NCBI GenBank assembly: GCA_963707635.1
Contig: OY970173.1
Span: 1,920,001 to 1,984,000 of the forward strand
DNA from: Candidatus Latescibacterota bacterium
Lineage (GTDB): Bacteria > Krumholzibacteriota > Krumholzibacteriia > WVZY01 > JAKEHA01
DNA: 64,000 bases
Direction of reading: 5' to 3'
In this document: positions 5,915 to 17,867 of the stretch, piece after piece
Layout: each line of letters starts with the position of its first letter
How positions within the stretch are numbered: position 1 is the stretch's first letter
Notes under the pieces: model-generated
Told to the model about the DNA's origin: nothing
What the model saw: the letters and a program-made list of their open reading frames with translations, nothing else
The model's database searches: none
Translations under genes and position numbers: made by a program

Positions 5915-6199
5915 ATGACGAAAGCAGACTTGGTCGAGGATATCTCGAGGGTCACCGGGCTCAACAAGAAGGACACGAGCATCATTGTCAATGAGGTGAT
6001 CAACAATATTTGCCGCGCGTTGGCCGAGGGCGACAAGGTCGAGCTGCGCGGATTCGGGAGTTTCAAGGTGAAGGAGCGCCGGGCCCGGCAGGCGCGTAAC
6101 CCGCGCACCGGCGCCGGGGTTCAGGTGCCCGCGAAGTTGGTGCCGTTCTTCAAGGCGTCCAACGAACTCAAGGCGCGTGTCAACGATTCCACCGTCTGA
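5915..6199 (+). CDS. HU/IHF family DNA-binding protein
   Basis: MTKADLV...VELRGFGSFKVKERRARQARNPRTG...VPFFKAS; GGGAGAG RBS. Confidence 0.96.
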   Translation: MTKADLVEDISRVTGLNKKDTSIIVNEVINNICRALAEGDKVELRGFGSFKVKERRARQARNPRTGAGVQVPAKLVPFFKASNELKARVNDSTV

Positions 6200-6224
6200 A
6201 CGCGAAGAAAGGGAGTATTCGGGA

Positions 6225-6320
6225 ATGCCTTGCGGACGCAAACGTAAACGACAGAAGATCAGGACTCACAAGCGCAAGAAACGCCTGCGCAAGAACCGCC
6301 ACAAGAAGAGATTGCGGTAG
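6225..6320 (+). CDS. 30S ribosomal protein bS22 (AURKAIP1/COX24 family), 31 aa; missing from the ORF track
   Basis: MPCGRKRKRQKIRTHKRKKRLRKNRHKKRLR*; GGGAG RBS. Confidence 0.85.
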   Translation: MPCGRKRKRQKIRTHKRKKRLRKNRHKKRLR

Positions 6321-6325
6321 TCGAC

Positions 6326-6363
6326 GGGCGGCGGCCGGTGAATCCGGCCGCCGCCTTCGTTTG
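6326..6363 (+). terminator. Intrinsic terminator
   Basis: GGCGGCGGCCGG-TGAAT-CCGGCCGCCGCC followed by TTCGTTT. Confidence 0.75.
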
Positions 6364-6406
6364 AACTCGAAGTGCGGGATTCATCCGCAGGAGGTCAAAG
6401 AGGTCG

Positions 6407-6760
6407 ATGACACGAGTCGAACGACGCTCCGCCGCCCGGTTGCCGGCGCGGCTGGCCATGGAGATCACGCTGGGTGCGGACCGCGCGCGCGCGGAAAGCC
6501 TCAACGTGAGCGCCAACGGCGTGTACTTTTCGTCCAAGGCCTACATACCGCTGCTGACGCGGCTGCGGATCACGCTCGAGCTTCCGGAGGAGCCCGGTTC
6601 GACGTCGCGGGTGGCGTGCGACGGGGTCGTGGTGCGCACCGAGCCGGAGGTGGAAACCGCGTCGGCCAGCGAGTACGAGGTCGCCTGCTACTTTACGGAT
6701 ATGTCCGACACCGACCGCGACCGCCTCGAGTCGTATATCCTTCGCCACGTACCGTTTTGA
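6407..6760 (+). CDS. Stand-alone PilZ domain protein
   Basis: ERRSAAR (RxxxR) and NVSANG (D/NxSxxG) motifs. Confidence 0.88.
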   Translation: MTRVERRSAARLPARLAMEITLGADRARAESLNVSANGVYFSSKAYIPLLTRLRITLELPEEPGSTSRVACDGVVVRTEPEVETASASEYEVACYFTDMSDTDRDRLESYILRHVPF

Positions 6761-6878: not shown

Positions 6879-8531
6879 TTGAAAAGGAAGATCCCAAGAT
6901 CACCCCGCGACGGTACCCCGGCGCCTGTGGCCCACGTGGCCTCGCCCGTCGTCGCCGAGCCGCTCGAGCGCGTGGCCGCGCAGCTCAAGACGCTCTACCA
7001 GATGGGGCGCGATCTGGGGGACGACGAAAACTGGAGCGACGCGCTCGACCGCTTCCTGATGGCGTTGGTGACGTTCATGGGGGCGAGCGGGTCCGGATTG
7101 CTCCTGTTCAGCGACCGCGAGCGTTCGCTGTCGGTGCGCGCCGTGTTCCACGTGGACGACGAGCTGGTGGAGCGCGCGATCGCGACCATCCGCGAAGGCT
7201 GGCACCAGCACGCGCGCCGCGCGGAGATGCACAGCCTCGAGAGCTACCGCGAGCGCCGCCCCACCTCGTGCCTGGAACGCACCACGCGCTGGGCCGTCAC
7301 CGTGATCCCGCTGCGGCACCGCGGCCGCGCGCTCGGATTCCTGCTGCTCGACAAGGTGTATACGAGTGCCCCCGACTTCCAGCGCGACTATCATTTCTTG
7401 AGCGCGTTGCAGACGATCTTCGCGGAAGAGATCGCGAACGCGTCGTACATCAGCGACCTGCGGCAGTTGAGCCGGTTCAACCAGAAGGTCCTCGATAATA
7501 TCCGCAGCGGAGTCGTCACCACCGACCTGGAAGGCAACATTCGCTATTCGAACTCGTGGGCCAGCGACATGTGCCCGCGGCTGCGCTCGGTCGCGAAGAC
7601 GACCATCGCGTTCGACGACCTCTTCCACGGCTCGCCCCCGCCCGGCCTGTTCCGGCGCTTCCGGGACGCGCCGGGGGACAGCGAGGTGGTCGAGGTGGAC
7701 TGCCATGGCGGGCGCGCTCACCCGTTTCCGGCGCGACTCCGGCTGGCGAAGATGCACGACGACCACCTCAACGGCACGGTCGTGATCGCGATCTTCGACG
7801 ACCTTTCCGAGCACAAGCGCATGGAAGAGGCGATTCGTCGCAACGACCGCCTGCGCTCGCTGGGGCAGTTGTCGGCGGGTGTCGCGCACGAGATTCGAAA
7901 TCCGCTGGCGGGGATCGCCACCACCGCCGAGGTGCTGGCCTCGAAACTGCGCGGCGACGAGGAGAAGACCAAGTACGTCGACGTCATGCTCGATGAGGTG
8001 AGCCGGCTCGACGGCATCGTGCGCAACCTGCTCGCGTTCGCGCGCCCGCCCAGGCCGCAGCTGGCCCCGTGCCTGGTCGGCGAGATCGTGGAGCGCGTGC
8101 GCGTGCTGCTCGCGGACCAGGCGCGGGCCCGCAGCGTCGCGGTGGACGTCGAAGTCGGGGCCGCTGCGCGTTGTCTCGCCGACGCGTCGCAGCTCACGCA
8201 GGTTCTGCTGAACCTGGCGCTGAACGCCGTGCAGGCGTGCGCCGCCGGAGACCGGGTGTCGATCGGGGCGCGGCGCGAGACGGACGCGGAGCAGGAGTGG
8301 GTGTCGATCGAGGTGTCGGACACCGGCGCCGGCGTACCGAGCGAGGTACGCGAGAGCCTGTTCGAGCCGTTCGTGACCACCAAGACGCAGGGAACCGGTC
8401 TGGGCCTCGCGATTACGCGCCAGATCGTCGAGGACCACCGGGGGACGATTGCGTGCACGTTCCTCGAGCGCGGGACCACATTCACCGTCCGCCTGCCGGC
8501 GTACGCGGAGGTCGGCACCGGGGCGCGCTAG
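6879..8531 (+). CDS. Cytoplasmic sensor histidine kinase (GAF-like + PAS + HisKA + HATPase)
   Basis: H-box AHEIRNPL, N-box NLALNA, G1 DTGAG, F-box FEPFVTTK, G2 GTGLGL; TTG start after GGAGG. Confidence 0.93.
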   Translation: MKRKIPRSPRDGTPAPVAHVASPVVAEPLERVAAQLKTLYQMGRDLGDDENWSDALDRFLMALVTFMGASGSGLLLFSDRERSLSVRAVFHVDDELVERAIATIREGWHQHARRAEMHSLESYRERRPTSCLERTTRWAVTVIPLRHRGRALGFLLLDKVYTSAPDFQRDYHFLSALQTIFAEEIANASYISDLRQLSRFNQKVLDNIRSGVVTTDLEGNIRYSNSWASDMCPRLRSVAKTTIAFDDLFHGSPPPGLFRRFRDAPGDSEVVEVDCHGGRAHPFPARLRLAKMHDDHLNGTVVIAIFDDLSEHKRMEEAIRRNDRLRSLGQLSAGVAHEIRNPLAGIATTAEVLASKLRGDEEKTKYVDVMLDEVSRLDGIVRNLLAFARPPRPQLAPCLVGEIVERVRVLLADQARARSVAVDVEVGAAARCLADASQLTQVLLNLALNAVQACAAGDRVSIGARRETDAEQEWVSIEVSDTGAGVPSEVRESLFEPFVTTKTQGTGLGLAITRQIVEDHRGTIACTFLERGTTFTVRLPAYAEVGTGAR

Positions 8532-8573: not shown

Positions 8574-9971
8574 ATGCCGAAGACGATTCTCATCATCGAC
8601 GACGAGAAGACCATTCGCTGGTCGCTGGCCGAGGCGCTCAATGCCAGCGGCTACGAAACGGTCGACGCGGACGGCGCGGCCGCCGGCATCGCCCGCTTCC
8701 GCGAGGCCACCCCGGACCTGGTGCTGCTCGACATGAAGCTGCCCGACGGGTCCGGGCTGGACGTGCTCAAGTCGGTAAAGAGCGAGGACCCGGGGGTCCC
8801 GGTGATCATGATGACCGCGTACGCGGAGGTGGAGACGGCGGTGGAAGCGATGAAGAACGGCGCGTACGATTTCGTCGCCAAGCCCTATTCGCTGGAGAAA
8901 CTTCGCGTCGCTATTTCGAACGCGCTGGAGAACGAGCGGCTGCGCACCGAGATCGCGTACCTGCGCTCGGGCACCACCGGCGGCGCCGTCTTCAAGTCAT
9001 TCATCGGCCGCAGCCCGGCGATGCTGGAGATCTTCGAGAAGATCCGCAAGATCGGGCAGAGCAAGGCCAACACCATTCTGATCACCGGCGAGAGCGGGTC
9101 GGGGAAGGAACTCGTCGCGCGCGCGATTCACTCCTGCAGCCACGACGACGCCCGCCCGTTCATGGAAATAAACTGCGCGTCGGTTCCGGAGACGTTGCTG
9201 GAGAGCGAGCTGTTCGGGTACGAAAAGGGCGCATTCACCGACGCCAAGACCCGCAAGAAAGGCTTGGTCGAGCTCGCCGAGGGCGGGACCCTGTTCCTGG
9301 ACGAGATCGGAGAGATGGGCATCACGCTCCAGTCGCGCCTCCTGCGCGTGCTCGAAAACAAAACCTTTCGGCGCGTCGGGGGTGTCAAGGACCTGACCGT
9401 GAACACGCGCATCGTGTCGGCGACCAATCGCGACCTCGGCCAGGCCATCAAGGACAAGGTCTTTCGGGAAGACCTGTATTACCGGCTCAAGGTGATCCCG
9501 CTCCACATTCCGCCGCTGCGCGAGCGGCGCGAGGACGTCCCGCTGCTCGTCAATCACTTCGTCGAGCGTTTCAATCGCGAGCTCGGCAAGCAGGTGGCGC
9601 CGCCGGAACCGGCCGTGATGGACTACCTCGTGCGCTACGACTGGCCCGGCAACGTGCGCGAGATGCGCAACGTGATCGAACGGGCGATGCTGCTCGAGGC
9701 CCAGGACGAACTGCTGGTGTCACACCTCCCGAGCGAGATCCGCGGGCATGCGGGAGGCGACATTCCGACCGTGCGCTCGTCGGCGGTGGTGGTCGATTCG
9801 TTCTTCCCGATGACGCTGCGCGACGTGGAGCGCGTCCAGATCGAGCGCACCCTCGAGCAGACGCACGGCAACAAGTCGCGCGCGGCTGCGATCCTGGGCA
9901 TCTCGCGGCAGACGCTGCGCGAGAAGCTCAAGACGTTCCACGGCGACGAGGCGACGGTGGCCGGGCCGTAG
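8574..9971 (+). CDS. Sigma54-dependent response regulator (REC-AAA+-Fis HTH; NtrC/AtoC family)
   Basis: IIDDE, LLDMKLP, GESGSGKE, ESELFG, GAFTDA, FLDEI, WPGNVRE, C-terminal HTH. Confidence 0.96.
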   Translation: MPKTILIIDDEKTIRWSLAEALNASGYETVDADGAAAGIARFREATPDLVLLDMKLPDGSGLDVLKSVKSEDPGVPVIMMTAYAEVETAVEAMKNGAYDFVAKPYSLEKLRVAISNALENERLRTEIAYLRSGTTGGAVFKSFIGRSPAMLEIFEKIRKIGQSKANTILITGESGSGKELVARAIHSCSHDDARPFMEINCASVPETLLESELFGYEKGAFTDAKTRKKGLVELAEGGTLFLDEIGEMGITLQSRLLRVLENKTFRRVGGVKDLTVNTRIVSATNRDLGQAIKDKVFREDLYYRLKVIPLHIPPLRERREDVPLLVNHFVERFNRELGKQVAPPEPAVMDYLVRYDWPGNVREMRNVIERAMLLEAQDELLVSHLPSEIRGHAGGDIPTVRSSAVVVDSFFPMTLRDVERVQIERTLEQTHGNKSRAAAILGISRQTLREKLKTFHGDEATVAGP

Positions 9972-10192
9972 AGGCTTCTCGTAGGGGCGCGGGTCCTGTC
10001 GGCCAACAGCCCGCGGCGGGCTCGCCATTCGCGCCTTCGCACTCGGTGGCTCGCCCTGGCGGGCGCCCGTTGGCCGCCACCCGCGTGCGCCTTTCCGGCT
10101 ACCGGACAATTCTTTCCCACCCACGCGGGCATCGGTGCCGGAAACTGGTCGCACGTCGGCCAGCGGCGTGCGGATCGCCGCGGCACCACGCC

Positions 10193-10222
10193 TTTAACCT
10201 TATTTATACCAGCTAGATAACG
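10193..10222 (+). promoter_or_regulatory. AT-rich IHF-like site upstream of a sigma54 promoter
   Basis: TTTAACCTTATTTATACCAGCTAGATAA in a GC-rich context; TACCAGctagATA has two mismatches to WATCARnnnnTTR; lies about -50 to -80. Confidence 0.4.
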
Positions 10223-10247
10223 TCGGCGCCTGGCGTCGCGTTGCCGA

Positions 10248-10262
10248 AGGCACGTGCTTTGC
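10248..10262 (+). promoter_or_regulatory. Sigma54 -24/-12 promoter candidate
   Basis: AGGCACGTGCTTTGC, GG-N10-GC. Confidence 0.65.
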
Positions 10263-10275
10263 GCTTCGGCGCGGC

Positions 10276-11079
10276 GTGAACCCATCGAACGATTCCGAGC
10301 GAGAGTCCTACGTGGCCCGTGATCAGGCGCGCGTGCGCCGCCGGCGCGCCGCGGAAAACCTGCTCGTGGACCTCGGCGCTCGTCCGGCACCCGAGCTGAC
10401 CGCAGACGACCGCGCCACCGTCCGCGCGCTCGACGCGCTCCTCGCCCAGACCGTGCGGGCCGGCCGCCACTCGTCGGGGGCGATTCGCGCCTACGCGTCG
10501 CTGATCGAAGACGCCCATCCGGCCTCGAACGCGAGTCACTGGGCGGAGAAGATCGCGCGTTCGGCGGGCGAGCTGGATGCGTTCGTGGCCCGGCTGGCCA
10601 CGTTGCGCGTGTGCGAGGGCGAAAAACCGACTCCGATGGAATGGGGGGACGCGATGTCGCGCGTGGCCGATCGCTGCGCGTCCATCGGCGTCTGCACAAT
10701 CGAAGTCACCGACCGCTCGCGCGGTGCGTTCCGGCAACGCGCCGAGCTGGTGGGCAGAATCCTGTTTCAACTGGTACGAAACGCGGTCGAGGCGGCGCCG
10801 CGTGGGGGGCTGGTGCGCGTGCGGGTCGACGAGGCCAGACTGGATGGCGCGCGCGGCGCACACATCCGTGTGGGCGACGGCGGCGAGGGAATGACCCACG
10901 ACCGGGTCGAGGAAATCTGGCGGCCATTTGTCAGCGACAAGCGCGGGCACCCGGGCCTGGGGCTCGCGTATGTCGCCACGTGCGCACCGCTGGTCGGCGC
11001 GCTCGCCGGCATCCGCTCCACCGACGAAGGGACCGAGGCGCACCTGATTCTGGAAGAAGAAGGAGGACTGGAATGGTAA
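10276..11079 (+). CDS. Sensor-less histidine pseudokinase (degenerate H-box, HATPase motifs present)
   Basis: QLVRNAVEA, DGGEGM, WRPFVSDK and PGLGLA present; H-box region reads LAQTVRAGRHSSGAI. Confidence 0.75.
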   Translation: MNPSNDSERESYVARDQARVRRRRAAENLLVDLGARPAPELTADDRATVRALDALLAQTVRAGRHSSGAIRAYASLIEDAHPASNASHWAEKIARSAGELDAFVARLATLRVCEGEKPTPMEWGDAMSRVADRCASIGVCTIEVTDRSRGAFRQRAELVGRILFQLVRNAVEAAPRGGLVRVRVDEARLDGARGAHIRVGDGGEGMTHDRVEEIWRPFVSDKRGHPGLGLAYVATCAPLVGALAGIRSTDEGTEAHLILEEEGGLEW

Positions 11080-11648
11080 GGACGATTTTACTCGCAGGCG
11101 TGGGCAAGGCGTGGGTTACCGGCAGCGACGTATCGATTCTCGTCGCGATGCTCGGCGCGGAGGCGCTCGATTTCCTGGCGCGCCGTTCCTGCGACGCGGT
11201 CGCGGTCGGAAACGTCCCCGACCTGGCGCAGACGGACCTGGCGGAACGCATCCACGCGCGCTACCCGCGGCTGCCGATCGTGTTCGTCGGCGAGCAGGTC
11301 CCGGTGATCGCCCCGGTCTGGGAACACGTGCCGCCGTCATTGCTCGACCGGCTTCCGGCCGTGCTCGAACGCGCCGCGGAGGTGGGCTGGCTGCGCCGGG
11401 AATACGACCGTTTCGCGCAATCCACCGCCGAGGCGCAGCCGCGGGAAGTGGAGCTGACATTCGAACAGGGATCCATTCGTGAGATGGAACGCCTCATGAT
11501 CGTCGGCCGGCTGGAGCGATTGAACCAGAACCGGACGCGGTCGGCGGAGTCGCTCGATATCAGCGTGCGCACCCTTCGCAACAAGCTGCGGGAGTATCGG
11601 GCGCGCATCGCGTCCACGGGCCAGAAGCGATCGCTATTGACAGACTGA
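11073..11648 (+). CDS. Pseudo-receiver + Fis-type HTH protein lacking the AAA+ domain
   Basis: ATG 11073 after GGAGG, overlapping the previous stop; REC-like GAEALDFL..CDAVAVG..PD..P-LPIVFV; HTH NRTRSAESLDISVRTLRNKLREY. Confidence 0.75.
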   Translation: MVRTILLAGVGKAWVTGSDVSILVAMLGAEALDFLARRSCDAVAVGNVPDLAQTDLAERIHARYPRLPIVFVGEQVPVIAPVWEHVPPSLLDRLPAVLERAAEVGWLRREYDRFAQSTAEAQPREVELTFEQGSIREMERLMIVGRLERLNQNRTRSAESLDISVRTLRNKLREYRARIASTGQKRSLLTD

Positions 11649-11665
11649 CAGACCGTCGATAGTGT
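11637..11665 (+). promoter_or_regulatory. Sigma70-type promoter overlapped by a tandem TGACAGAC repeat
   Basis: TTGACA-N17-TAGTGT; TGACAGAC at 11638-11645 and 11646-11653. Confidence 0.5.
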
Positions 11666-11668
11666 TCG

Positions 11669-13174
11669 TTGCGGTGGAACCCGTTGAATTCACCGCAGCT
11701 TCAGATTCTGGCCCTTTCGGCTGATCCGACAATCCGCCAGTCGCTCGAGGCGGCCGCGGTCGCCGACATCGGGCCCGTCCGGTTCAGCGACGACGCTGCC
11801 GGGCTGCTCGATGCGCTGACCTCGGCGGCCGGTGCGATCCTCATCGACGAGCTCGCGGAGCCCGCCTATGTCTCCCTCATCAAGCGGGCGCGCAAGACGG
11901 CGCCCGGTGTCGAGGCCATCGTCGTGGGCGGGCCGAAGTCGGACGCGGTTCGGCGCGACGAGCGCCGCGACGCCGTCGATCTGTACATCGAACGTCCGCT
12001 CGAGCCCCGCACCCTGCGCTCCACCCTGACCCACCGATTGACGCTGGCGGCGCTGAAGGCGCGCAGCGGCATCATCGGTCGTTCTCCCGCGCTCGAAGAA
12101 CTGCTCGAGAGCGTGCTGCTGGTGGCGCCCACCGAGGTTCCGATCCTGATCCAGGGCGAGAGCGGGACCGGAAAGGACGTCATCGCGCGCGCGATCCACG
12201 CGTGCAGCCGTCGTCGCGATCGTCCGTTCGAGGCCGTCAACTGTGGGGCGCTCGCGGAGGGCGTGCTCGAGAGCGAGCTGTTCGGCCACGAACGCGGCGC
12301 GTTCACCGGGGCGGTGTCGCGCCGCCCGGGCATGTTCGAGCGCACCGACACCGGAACCATCTTTCTCGACGAGGTCGGCGAGACGAGCCCCAACATGCAG
12401 GTCCGGCTCCTGCGCGTGCTCGAGTCCGGCGAAGTGCTCCGCGTCGGGGGCGTGACGGGACTCCGCGTTGACGTGCGCGTGATCGCGGCCAGCAATCGCA
12501 ACCTCGGCGAAGCGGTTCGCTCGGGCGCGTTTCGCCAGGATCTCTATTACCGGCTCAAGGGCGTGAGCCTGCACCTGCCGCCGCTGCGCGAGCGGCGCGA
12601 AGACATCCCGGTGCTCGTGCAGCATTTCATCGCCGCGGCGAATCGAACCAATCAGAAGTCGGTGCGGGGTGTCGACGCGGACGCGATGAATCGCCTGGTC
12701 GCGTACTCGTGGCCGGGGAACATTCGCGAGCTGCGCAACCTGGTGGAGACGTTGGTCGTGCTCGCGCCGGGCGCCCGCCTCACGCGGGAGCTGGTCGACG
12801 CGCAACTGTCCGACGCCGGCGGACCGACGCGCGCGGAGGCGCTCCTGCCGGTGGCCGTGGGCCGGAGCCGGGACGACGCCGAGCGCGAGTTGCTCTACGG
12901 GTCGATACTCGCCCTGCACCGCGACGTGCGCGAGATCCTTCGCCTCTTCCACGAGGGGTCCCGGCCGCAGCCGGGGGTGGTGTGGGACGGGCTGCGCGAG
13001 GTCGGAACCGAACGGCCGCGCGAGGAGACGAATCTGAGCCTGGGTCATCTCGAACGCGCGGCCATCCGCGAGGCGCTCGTTCGCGCCGGGGGGAACCGCC
13101 GCAAGGCGGCGGAGTACCTGGAGATCTCGGAGCGCACGCTGTACCGCAAGATCAAGGAATTCGGGCTGGCGTGA
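11669..13174 (+). CDS. Sigma54-dependent Fis-family activator with atypical receiver domain
   Basis: GESGTGKD, ESELFGH, GAFTGA, FLDEV, WPGNIRE, HTH GNRRKAAEYLEISERTLYRK; start may be slightly downstream. Confidence 0.93.
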   Translation: MRWNPLNSPQLQILALSADPTIRQSLEAAAVADIGPVRFSDDAAGLLDALTSAAGAILIDELAEPAYVSLIKRARKTAPGVEAIVVGGPKSDAVRRDERRDAVDLYIERPLEPRTLRSTLTHRLTLAALKARSGIIGRSPALEELLESVLLVAPTEVPILIQGESGTGKDVIARAIHACSRRRDRPFEAVNCGALAEGVLESELFGHERGAFTGAVSRRPGMFERTDTGTIFLDEVGETSPNMQVRLLRVLESGEVLRVGGVTGLRVDVRVIAASNRNLGEAVRSGAFRQDLYYRLKGVSLHLPPLRERREDIPVLVQHFIAAANRTNQKSVRGVDADAMNRLVAYSWPGNIRELRNLVETLVVLAPGARLTRELVDAQLSDAGGPTRAEALLPVAVGRSRDDAERELLYGSILALHRDVREILRLFHEGSRPQPGVVWDGLREVGTERPREETNLSLGHLERAAIREALVRAGGNRRKAAEYLEISERTLYRKIKEFGLA

Positions 13175-16460: not shown

Positions 16461-17867
16461 ATGGCTGCCGTGCGCATCTATGATCAGGACTTCCGATACC
16501 TTCTCCTCCACCTGGTGCCCCAGCACCGGCTGTCTCCCGGACTCCGGCGAGACGTCGACCATGCGCTCCGGAACGGGGAGACCGGCGCACTCCGGCGCGA
16601 GGCGATCCGAGCGCTCGAGGAGCTTTGCGAGAGCGCCTACTTCGAGCGCACGGGGGTGCGCGCCGAGAACGGCCGGGTCGTCGTCGGGTACCGACGCCGG
16701 GGAGGGAGCTACCAGTTGAGTGTCGCCCTCCCGCGCGCGGAAGAAGCGTGGCTCCTCCCGGCCGCGCCGGCAGTTCCTCCCGCAGCGCCTCCCGCCCCGG
16801 ACGCGGTGGAATCGACCGAAACGCTCCGCACCACGAATGCGGCGCCGGCGCCGCATGTCGCCGGGCCCGACGATCGCGCCGCGGTTCCGCAGGCCGATGA
16901 GATCATCCCCGTCATCATGCGCTCGTTCGCGATCGTCGATCGCGCGATGCCCGTGCTGGAACGAATCGACGTGCTGCTGGGTGCGCTGGAGCGTTGGCTC
17001 GGAATGAGCAACGTGGGGCTCGACGTGCTGGAAGACACGCTGGTGGCGGGTGAGGCGGACCCGCGGGCGCGCGTGCGGGTGCTTTCCGAGGCGGACCTGC
17101 GCGCCTCCGAAGTGGCGCGCGCCGCCATTGAATCGGGTACCCGCCGGCTGATCCCGCGCGCGAACCTCGACGCGCCGGGCCCGGGGGGCGCGGCGTGGGA
17201 TGTGCTCGGCATCGCGCCGATCTTCGCCCTGGGCAAGGTGGTCGGCGCGCTGCGGGCGTGCTTTCCCGCGGGGCTCGACCGGACCGCCATGGACGCCGCG
17301 CTCGAGACGGCGACAGGGGTGGTGCGGCACGTGATCGAGTTCCACCACCAGTTCGAGAACCTCACCTCGGTGGACTCTCTCACGGGTATCTACAACCGGC
17401 AGTTTTTCGATCGCCAGTTGCCGGTCGAAATCGAGCGCGCGATGCGCTCCGGGACGGCGCTCTCGATGCTCGTCGCCGACATCGACGATTTCAAGCGCAT
17501 CAACGACGACCTCGGCCACAAGAAGGGCGACGAGGCTCTGGCCGCGGTGGCCGACATCATCCGGCGCAACCTCCGCAAGATCGATACTCCGTTCCGCTAC
17601 GGCGGCGAAGAGATCGTCATCCTCCTCCCCGGCACGCCCGAGTTCGAGGCGGTGCACACCGCCGAGCGTCTGCGGCGCGTCATCCAGCAGCACCGCGGCT
17701 TTCGTGACGGTCGCGGAAACCCGCGCGAGGTCACGGTGAGCGTCGGCGTGGCCGTCTACCCCGACACGGCGAAGACCGGAGACCAACTCTTCTCCCAGGC
17801 CGACGAGGCCATGTACCGCGCGAAGCAACGCGGCAAGAACCAGGTGGTGCTGTACTCCAACTCGTGA
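16461..17867 (+). CDS. Diguanylate cyclase (unknown N-terminal domain + GAF-like + GGDEF)
   Basis: DSLTGIYN, DIDDFKRIND-LGH-KGD, RKID I-site, RYGGEEI, ADEAMYRAK. Confidence 0.93.
   Translation: MAAVRIYDQDFRYLLLHLVPQHRLSPGLRRDVDHALRNGETGALRREAIRALEELCESAYFERTGVRAENGRVVVGYRRRGGSYQLSVALPRAEEAWLLPAAPAVPPAAPPAPDAVESTETLRTTNAAPAPHVAGPDDRAAVPQADEIIPVIMRSFAIVDRAMPVLERIDVLLGALERWLGMSNVGLDVLEDTLVAGEADPRARVRVLSEADLRASEVARAAIESGTRRLIPRANLDAPGPGGAAWDVLGIAPIFALGKVVGALRACFPAGLDRTAMDAALETATGVVRHVIEFHHQFENLTSVDSLTGIYNRQFFDRQLPVEIERAMRSGTALSMLVADIDDFKRINDDLGHKKGDEALAAVADIIRRNLRKIDTPFRYGGEEIVILLPGTPEFEAVHTAERLRRVIQQHRGFRDGRGNPREVTVSVGVAVYPDTAKTGDQLFSQADEAMYRAKQRGKNQVVLYSNS

Follow-up and report, generated by a model that had tools for sequence, protein, structure and literature searches.

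A sigma54-linked histidine pseudokinase and its AAA+-less partner as probable descendants of a flagellar kinase-activator operon

We analysed a 64,000-nucleotide stretch (hereafter the window) of contig OY970173.1, positions 1,920,001 to 1,984,000, from the Candidatus Latescibacterota bacterium assembly GCA_963707635.1. Two overlapping open reading frames (ORFs) of the window, 10276-11079 (267 amino acids) and 11073-11648 (191 amino acids), lie behind a sigma54 promoter. The first encodes a sensorless histidine kinase-like protein, and the second a receiver-like region joined to a helix-turn-helix (HTH) without an AAA+ domain. A first-pass annotation, made from the letters alone, had proposed that they form a feedback module that works without phosphorylation. 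The follow-up supports a pair that is conserved, independent of phosphorylation and placed behind a sigma54 promoter, and it finds an anti-activator role to be the most likely mechanism. It also brings two points that the annotation did not contain, a flagellar ancestry and recurrent inactivation across the order. The features of the pair are the following:

10248-10263, + strand: sigma54 promoter AGGCACGTGCTTTGCG, with GG at 10249-10250 and GC at 10261-10262
10276-11079, + strand: sensorless histidine pseudokinase (DHp and CA domains) with H-box R61-A-G-R-H65, orthologue of a His-bearing flagellar-operon kinase
10456-10470, + strand: codons R61-A62-G63-R64-H65, with Arg at the phospho-His position and His at the H+4 (Thr/Asn) position
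11061-11066, + strand: AGGAGG, Shine-Dalgarno sequence of the HTH gene, inside the last pseudokinase codons
11073-11648, + strand: pseudo-receiver, linker and FlbD/FlrC-type Fis HTH, with the AAA+ domain deleted relative to orthologues of 457-479 amino acids
11457-11600, + strand: HTH region, residues 129-176, with recognition helix ISVRTLRNKL, under the strongest purifying selection

The first ORF can be described as a kinase core that has lost its phospho-acceptor. Pfam searches found HATPase_c in it and gave no match to HisKA, and its AlphaFold model (pLDDT 84.5) resembles DHp+CA cores such as those of ZraS and DivL, with a DHp hairpin and a Bergerat-fold CA domain that has the N, G1, F and G2 boxes. 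These ATP-binding boxes remain, as first described, and N169, D201, G203 and the G2 glycines are conserved. The arginine at the phospho-His position had been read from an alignment to the upstream kinase; that register was not recovered, as BLAST aligned only the CA domain, but the arginine itself is borne out by syntenic orthologues, with Arg61 in 38 of 38 genus sequences and His at the same position in 12 of 12 outgroup orthologues. A62, R64 and H65 are likewise present in 38 of 38 genus sequences, and His65, which is H+4, takes the place of the Asn found in outgroups. In its kinase fold without the H-box His, the protein matches histidine pseudokinases of the DivL/PsmA kind. The segment R-A-G-R-H departs from the canonical H-E/D-x-x-T/N motif as defined in PMC3510030, which gives the acidic H+1 residue as needed for HisKA kinase activity and Thr/Asn at H+4 as needed for phosphatase activity. 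Because both are replaced, both activities are predicted to be lost. The absence of a sensor, correctly seen at first, is ancestral, since the His-bearing orthologues are sensorless too. Twenty-two positions reach 95% conservation or more within the genus and differ in near outgroups, seven of them on DHp helix 1; among the 22, the gene overlap accounts for Trp267, and several changes are conservative or favoured by GC content.

The kinase is present in 15 of the 16 other genus genomes and in 21 of 22 family genomes, and a wider alignment found it in 30 of 151 class genomes. In each of the 15 other matching genomes of the genus its frame is open, with 48-55% identity. Protein searches gave 27 close kinase entries (the window protein included) and more than 100 relatives of the regulator; the few of these that have a taxon label belong to Ca. 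Krumholzibacteria or Ca. Latescibacteria. Among the 150 representatives listed, 22 short top matches were picked, with long proteins, H-box-less fragments and a single member of the genus set aside, and at the H-box 15 of the 22 have His, four Arg (one poorly aligned) and three another residue. The three clear Arg-type orthologues, P0274, P0283 and P0289, have Gly, Asp or Ala at H+4 and no His. Like P0291, P0298 and P0305, they are sensorless and orthologue-like; the H-box of these six kinases has Arg, Ala, Asp or Asn, a pattern that suggests further independent His losses. Among the His-bearing outgroup kinases (for example L024 7846-8772, L025 7706-8533 and L071 8313-9167), H+1 is acidic in one of 12 and H+4 is Asn in 11 of 12; the ancestral flagellar kinase may already have been phosphatase-biased.

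The second ORF has a receiver fold by Foldseek and by a PDB profile search. Its AlphaFold model (pLDDT 83.1) matches the receivers of sigma54 activators, and the profile search aligns the family to the receiver and the HTH of NtrC1. The checks by profile and structure prediction that the first-pass annotation had called for recovered both the DHp+CA core and this receiver fold. The missing phosphorylation site was also found as described: the acid pair is replaced by A8/G9 and the phospho-Asp by Gly46, and the Thr/Ser and Lys are lost. Gly stands at the acid pair (Gly9) and at the phospho-Asp position (Gly46) in 54 of 55 regulator sequences, in which Thr/Ser is rare and Lys absent. The protein thus lacks the acid pair, Asp, Thr/Ser and Lys of phosphorylatable response regulators, RegA/PrrA included. 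HTH_8 (PF02954), the HTH of sigma54 activators, scores over the cut-off, and the AAA+ domain with its GAFTGA loop, present in orthologues, is absent, in agreement with the earlier description. The sister genera encode full activators as its orthologues, and these end in the same C-terminal helix, so the loss of the AAA+ domain was an in-frame deletion. The recognition helix is kept in 16 of the 16 orthologues aligned. The sole NCBIfam match of the regulator is the C-terminus of FlbD (E-value 4e-9); with 35.9 bits it falls below the cut-off of 750 for the FlbD family NF050807, as do three full orthologues (371-384), and many of its short HTH relatives are labelled FlrC. A frameshift or assembly artefact as the cause of the AAA+ loss was rejected, because 15 genus loci share a short open frame of about 150-191 amino acids.

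The origin of the pair can be read from flagellated relatives, which have at the same locus a sigma54 promoter, a sensorless His kinase, a full activator and fliA. The gene after the activator is FliA/WhiG, over the cut-off, in G004, G101 and G016, and the order kinase-activator-fliA is also found in six genomes of three other families; flagellin is present in all of these genomes except G016. Within the order, flagellin was found in two of 36 genomes, G004 and G101, which represent two genera of family f1 with an intact GAYTGA loop, and in G004 a complete flagellar cluster is present, sigma54 boxes included. Six of the seven distant genomes with the kinase have flagellin, and the seventh is 84% complete. 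A cytoplasmic kinase and a full activator linked to flagellar genes make the ancestral pair a flagellum-associated two-component system, and it looks like the FlgS/FlrB/FleS kind, with putative orthology. The window genome, a single contig of 96% completeness, was searched with 36 queries from the G004 flagellar cluster: 30 gave no match and the other six hit only distant paralogues. Neither flhA nor fliA was found over the cut-off. With neither an AAA+ domain nor flagellar genes in its genome, the window pair differs from systems that activate rod and hook genes through sigma54. We are highly confident that it descends from a flagellar kinase-activator-fliA operon.

Several observations concern the flagellar loci themselves. 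fliA is kept in G016 (L024 7846-11214) and G028 (L087 1-891), in which no flagellin or flhA was found, possibly through recent loss or another use of sigma28. The distant flagellated orthologues (L071-L075, L078) have GSFTSA in place of GAFTGA; most of these loci have a small gene of 100 amino acids before the upstream kinase, and some have a single-domain receiver after fliA. A frameshifted flhA-like gene lies beside a FliA-like sigma factor at G134:C11:3610-6379, apart from the pair locus. One Krumholzibacteriota genome with flagellar genes is noted in PMC10936416.

Selection on the pair was compared by pairwise NG86 ratios of non-synonymous to synonymous substitution rates (dN/dS), of which only the ranking was used, as synonymous sites are near saturation and the pairs are not independent. 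Genus medians are 0.15 for the HTH and 0.14 for RR1, the activator encoded directly upstream (8574-9971), while other neighbours have 0.19-0.26. The kinase has a median of 0.36 (closest pairs 0.12-0.27), the receiver 0.59 and the linker 0.72, and the whole-gene medians of the pair are 0.36 and 0.42, compared with 0.14-0.26 for neighbours. This ranking indicates that the DNA-reading end of the regulator is the part that is kept. The synteny and dN/dS comparison proposed at the outset thus gave a pair conserved in the genus, with its HTH under purifying selection. The two intact, overlapping frames and the strong ribosome-binding site were also as described, and the claim that the pair is not in simple decay stands on frames open in 15 genus relatives, on the HTH ratio and on the newly conserved kinase residues. 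Retention of the pair by selection is very likely.

Inactivation recurs across the order in different forms. Both flagellated genera keep GAYTGA. The window genus (g1) has deleted the AAA+ domain, and three genera of family f1 have the loops STLTGS, ASQVGE (with half of the receiver deleted) and RASAGA. G034 and G022 have IVAPTGA and VVGQAA loops and their kinase gene is gone, so that the GAFTGA loop is destroyed in five genera overall. In G074 and G125, of one genus of family f2, an HTH-only frame of about 87 amino acids stands behind the sigma54 box, with no kinase. These HTH-only frames (L085 2751-3092 and L086 3091-3513, minus strand) have a good Shine-Dalgarno sequence and look like a Fis-sized derivative of the flagellar activator. 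The non-flagellated lineages that keep a remnant retain the promoter and the HTH. The comparison covers the order apart from six genomes (G119, G028, G083, G086, G116 and G131) and the activator of G095. A tree of neighbour genes sets the genus apart (support 100) and nests G101, which is flagellated, within the loop-dead genera (100). In an earlier tree with the kinase included, the genus had come out as sister to the flagellated G004 (97). By these trees at least three independent inactivations are needed, or about five provided that the weaker nodes are right and no lineage reacquired a gene by transfer.

The promoter region adds three candidate sites to the sigma54 box:

10103-10118, + strand: FlbD/ftr-type site CGGACAATTCTTTCCC, 145 nucleotides before the sigma54 box, a candidate enhancer or operator with putative binding
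10207-10219, - strand: IHF-like site in the AT tract 10193-10221, with two mismatches to the consensus
10241-10246, + strand: TTGCCG half-site adjoining the -24 element, of putative function

The sigma54 promoter had been predicted, and each of the 28 related upstream regions examined (29 with the window) has a box in the corresponding position. A matrix trained on the relatives, without the window, ranks the window promoter first of the 48 strong sigma54 boxes of the genome, with 13.7 against 10.6 for the next. The start codon of the window is 14 nucleotides after the -12 C, and in 13 of 14 genus loci this distance is 13-15 nucleotides, so the transcript of the pair is probably leaderless. 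The FlbD site is given as CCCGGCA-N5-TGCCGGG in PMC3333781. Matches to GGCA-N5-TGCC with at most one mismatch number 17 in the 29 promoters and 0.84 in shuffles (maximum 6), and with at most two mismatches 44 and 8.1 (maximum 17), an enrichment that is overstated because the promoters are kin to each other. These sites have an AT-rich core, cluster near -146, -92, -38 and -19, and occur also at a flagellar operon promoter of G004. The window site at 10103-10118 has two mismatches, and a similar site is found at -127 to -150 in eight genus relatives; outgroup promoters have fuller TTGCCG-type sites at about -19 and -38. With a matrix built from the -145 sites only, 12 other places in the genome scored higher, none near a sigma54 box. 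The IHF-like tract that had been pointed out fared unevenly. Against the IHF consensus, the window site, with its two mismatches, is not above chance in the locus, but IHF-like matches recur at -41 and -53 in 14 of 29 regions (shuffle mean 7.7, maximum 13), and the window site lies at -41, the offset of one-mismatch sites in three relatives.

Genome-wide there are 115 GGCA-N5-TGCC-type matches, 30 of them intergenic and most away from sigma54 boxes. Outside the pair's own promoter, no conserved FlbD-type site was found at greA, a TolC-like sigma54 gene, pilB or pilM, in four to five relatives each. The type IV pilus genes pilB and pilM (L106 = G000:C1:2250000-2268000, and L107-L115) have conserved sigma54 promoters and a separate TTTGCA-containing motif.

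The genes that flank the pair comprise a canonical kinase and two activators:

6879-8531, + strand: GAF-PAS histidine kinase with a canonical HEIRN box, upstream, the probable partner of RR1
8574-9971, + strand: RR1, an intact REC-AAA+-HTH activator, upstream, candidate activator of the sigma54 promoter
11637-11642, + strand: TTGACA, probable -35 element of a sigma70 promoter for RR2, overlapping the end of the HTH gene
11669-13174, + strand: RR2, the downstream sigma54 activator, probably co-transcribed with the pair by read-through

The gene order GlmU-like, HU, PilZ, kinase, RR1, pair, RR2 and PorV-like is kept wherever contigs reach, and in flagellated relatives fliA sits between the pair and the RR2 gene. 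The short regulator immediately follows the pseudokinase at 15 of 16 genus loci; the remaining locus ends at a contig edge. RR1 is the only one of the 14 full activators of the genome that the HTH protein matched (phmmer, E-value 0.0014); the two recognition helices share TLRxKL, and that of RR1 is the most similar in the genome. No terminator was found between the HTH gene and RR2. The single terminator-like match is within chance, and the intergenic region folds little more than shuffles do (z -1.8). The TTGACA upstream of RR2 is kept in 15 of the 15 loci shown, although a consensus scan did not call it as a promoter at 11637-11642. An origin of the pair by recent duplication of the neighbouring kinase or RR1 was rejected on account of weak in-genome similarity and of true orthologues at the same locus elsewhere.

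Other observations touch RR2 and the wider cluster. In the RR2 region (window 11637-11670; L024-L027, L031-L042, L081-L083), a TGACA-N3-TGTCA palindrome is overlapped by the -35 TTGACA; the palindrome and the probable RR2 promoter are present even in loci without the pair, and the palindrome is likely an autoregulatory operator. The true start of RR2 is probably the TTG near 11684. Its N-terminal domain, which has no Response_reg match, resembles another atypical receiver, and its gene precedes a PorV/UPF0164-like outer-membrane gene. An HU/IHF-family gene and a single-domain PilZ gene (window 5927-6760) are syntenic with the regulator cluster in the loci examined; the PilZ gene and a GGDEF gene at 16461-17867 hint at c-di-GMP input.

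Since the pair's own activator is dead while the FlbD-type site, the IHF-like tract and the sigma54 box persist, another activator is implied. RR1, adjacent and intact, would activate the sigma54 promoter through the FlbD-type sites. The HTH protein, itself unable to activate, is predicted to compete with RR1 by occupying these sites, which would place negative feedback on a transcript that would run without a terminator into RR2. The Arg pseudokinase would bind a receiver, that of its partner or of phosphorylated RR1, in the manner of DivL. Repression by a related protein is on record, as FlbD represses class II genes (PMC3096577). We give about an even chance to this reading, in which the pair, conserved as what is left of a kinase and sigma54 activator of flagellar type, acts through the HTH protein as a negative-feedback brake, with the Arg kinase as a docking partner. 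A broader version is more tentative: several Krumholzibacteria lineages that lost flagella would independently have made their sigma54 activator a DNA-binding-only protein, down to a Fis-like HTH, and in the window genus the Arg pseudokinase, through a newly conserved surface, would read the phosphorylation of RR1 and control the brake, giving a two-component system without phosphate on either partner. We consider this possible, though doubtful.

A number of points weigh against the brake and its flagellar history. A single transition, of a kind that GC-rich DNA favours, is enough to turn His into Arg. Constraint on the receiver and linker is relaxed, and 22 of 55 regulator sequences are gapped at the end of the receiver, many having lost part of it. 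The stronger site at -90 to -105 of many relatives is absent in the window, some FlbD-type sites fall in hairpins, the kinship of the promoters inflates the motif counts, and sequence alone does not separate RR1, the HTH protein or both as the binder. With no conserved outside target at the four candidates, the benefit of a brake is unclear. Both genes and the promoter are lost in G134, G050 and G089 of family f2. On the flagellar side, G016 (96% complete) has an intact kinase, activator and fliA, yet no flagellin or flhA was found in it; three flagellated genomes of family f5 have no kinase match, nor do families f3, f4, f6 and f7, which are partly or wholly flagellated.

Alternative explanations share part of this evidence. 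The HTH protein could be a Fis-like architectural or global DNA binder with many weak sites, a repeat of the origin of Fis from NtrC in which autoregulation is incidental. The HTH-only protein without a kinase in two family f2 genomes and the scatter of motif matches over the genome fit such a protein, as do the Fis-NtrC ancestry cited in PMC7166090 and the GAFTGA-less Caulobacter NtrC, which shares sites with a nucleoid protein (10.1101/2023.06.06.543975). A recognition helix unchanged from that of specific flagellar activators, expression from a regulated sigma54 promoter and outside sites that are not conserved speak for a specific role instead, and we hold the global binder to be unlikely, if the strongest of the rivals. 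If the pair were instead slowly decaying, useless leftovers of flagellum loss would be kept for the promoter, the ribosome-binding-site overlap and the RR2 -35 element that they contain. The HTH-gene stop codon does fall within TTGACA in 12 of 15 genus loci, the whole-gene medians are raised, receiver and linker are relaxed, and three family f2 genomes have lost both genes; these facts are outweighed by the open frames at 48-55% identity in all 15 genus genomes with a match, the low ratios of the HTH and of the closest kinase pairs, the 22 newly conserved kinase residues and the survival of the HTH through at least three independent inactivations, which leave decay improbable.

The remaining rivals concern the way the proteins act. 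His65, one helical turn away from the lost position, might be a relocated phospho-acceptor that passes phosphate to, for example, RR1. The first-pass annotation had named such a relay through the nearby His (RHSS) as one thing that would overturn its proposal. The residue is indeed invariant in the genus, where it replaces Asn, and N169, D201, G203 and the G2 box are conserved, but His65 is not followed by the acidic residue required according to PMC3510030, the operon partner has no phospho-Asp, and the Arg-type orthologues P0274, P0283 and P0289 have other residues at H+4. The relay is weakened by this, and an active kinase has little probability. As for the AAA-less protein, instead of occupying enhancers it might work by contact, pairing with RR1 or RR2 into inactive mixed dimers, or might regulate sigma70 transcription in the manner of RegA/PrrA. 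It has kept the receiver fold and the long coiled-coil linker helix with which activators dimerise, Gly9, Gly46 and Asp50 are nearly invariant, and receiver-plus-Fis-HTH proteins of similar size occur in other phyla (search with homologue P0044). Selection is concentrated on the DNA-reading helix and not on the receiver, however, and the HTH-only form of family f2 has no receiver at all, so we regard contact or sigma70 control as a slim prospect.

Whatever the HTH protein does, the orthologues form a natural series at one syntenic locus, from intact through loop-dead, AAA-deleted and HTH-only to lost, which shows the fate of a regulatory tier once its organelle disappears. With orthologues placed side by side, it allows tests of the proposed descent of Fis from an enhancer-binding protein and of how bacterial pseudokinases arise.

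RegA, PrrA and ActR comprise a receiver and a Fis HTH in about 180-190 amino acids, have no AAA+ domain and are phosphorylated on Asp. The window regulator is likewise a receiver with a Fis HTH, of similar size and AAA+-less; unlike them, it lacks a phosphorylation site and is the product of an internal deletion in a full activator. FlgS, FlrB and FleS are cytoplasmic flagellar kinases that work with activators (PMC7064773). Like FlgS-FlgR, FlrB-FlrC and FleS-FleR, the ancestral pair has a membrane-sensorless cytoplasmic kinase and a sigma54 activator, and its operon, found chiefly in flagellated genomes, is linked to fliA; the sigma54 promoter with an activator upstream recalls the FlrA/FleQ tier. 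The window pair differs in having no phospho-His, phospho-Asp, AAA+ domain or flagellar genes, and orthology to those proteobacterial systems is putative. Similarity to Caulobacter FlbD is seen in the HTH match to its C-terminus and in the GGCA-N5-TGCC-type promoter sites. FlbD is both an activator and a repressor (PMC3096577), and Desulfovibrio DVU1063 has an atypical receiver (PMC3333781), but these two keep AAA+ and GAFTGA and activate, while the window protein has neither and cannot activate.

DivL and PsmA share with the pseudokinase a DHp+CA fold in which the phospho-His is replaced (PMC4211667, PMC12963549). DivL has Tyr at the H-box and needs an H+3 Arg for DivK~P binding (PMC4211667), and the H+3 Arg is invariant in the window family (R64). 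Unlike DivL and PsmA, the window protein carries Arg, not Tyr, in the H-box and His at the H+4 position, lacks PAS domains, is paired in an operon with a pseudo-receiver, and can be traced to a flagellar kinase. As in Fis and the GAFTGA-less Caulobacter NtrC, the C-terminal HTH of an activator has outlived sigma54 activation (PMC7166090, 10.1101/2023.06.06.543975). Caulobacter NtrC keeps its AAA+ domain, unlike the window protein, and the present case differs from Fis in its separate origin from a FlbD-type activator, its visible intermediate stages and its several parallel events. A literature search, covering listings and the openings of abstracts with few subscription journals, did not find a paired pseudokinase and AAA-less activator with traceable flagellar ancestry and a parallel series. 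Every single ingredient has a precedent.

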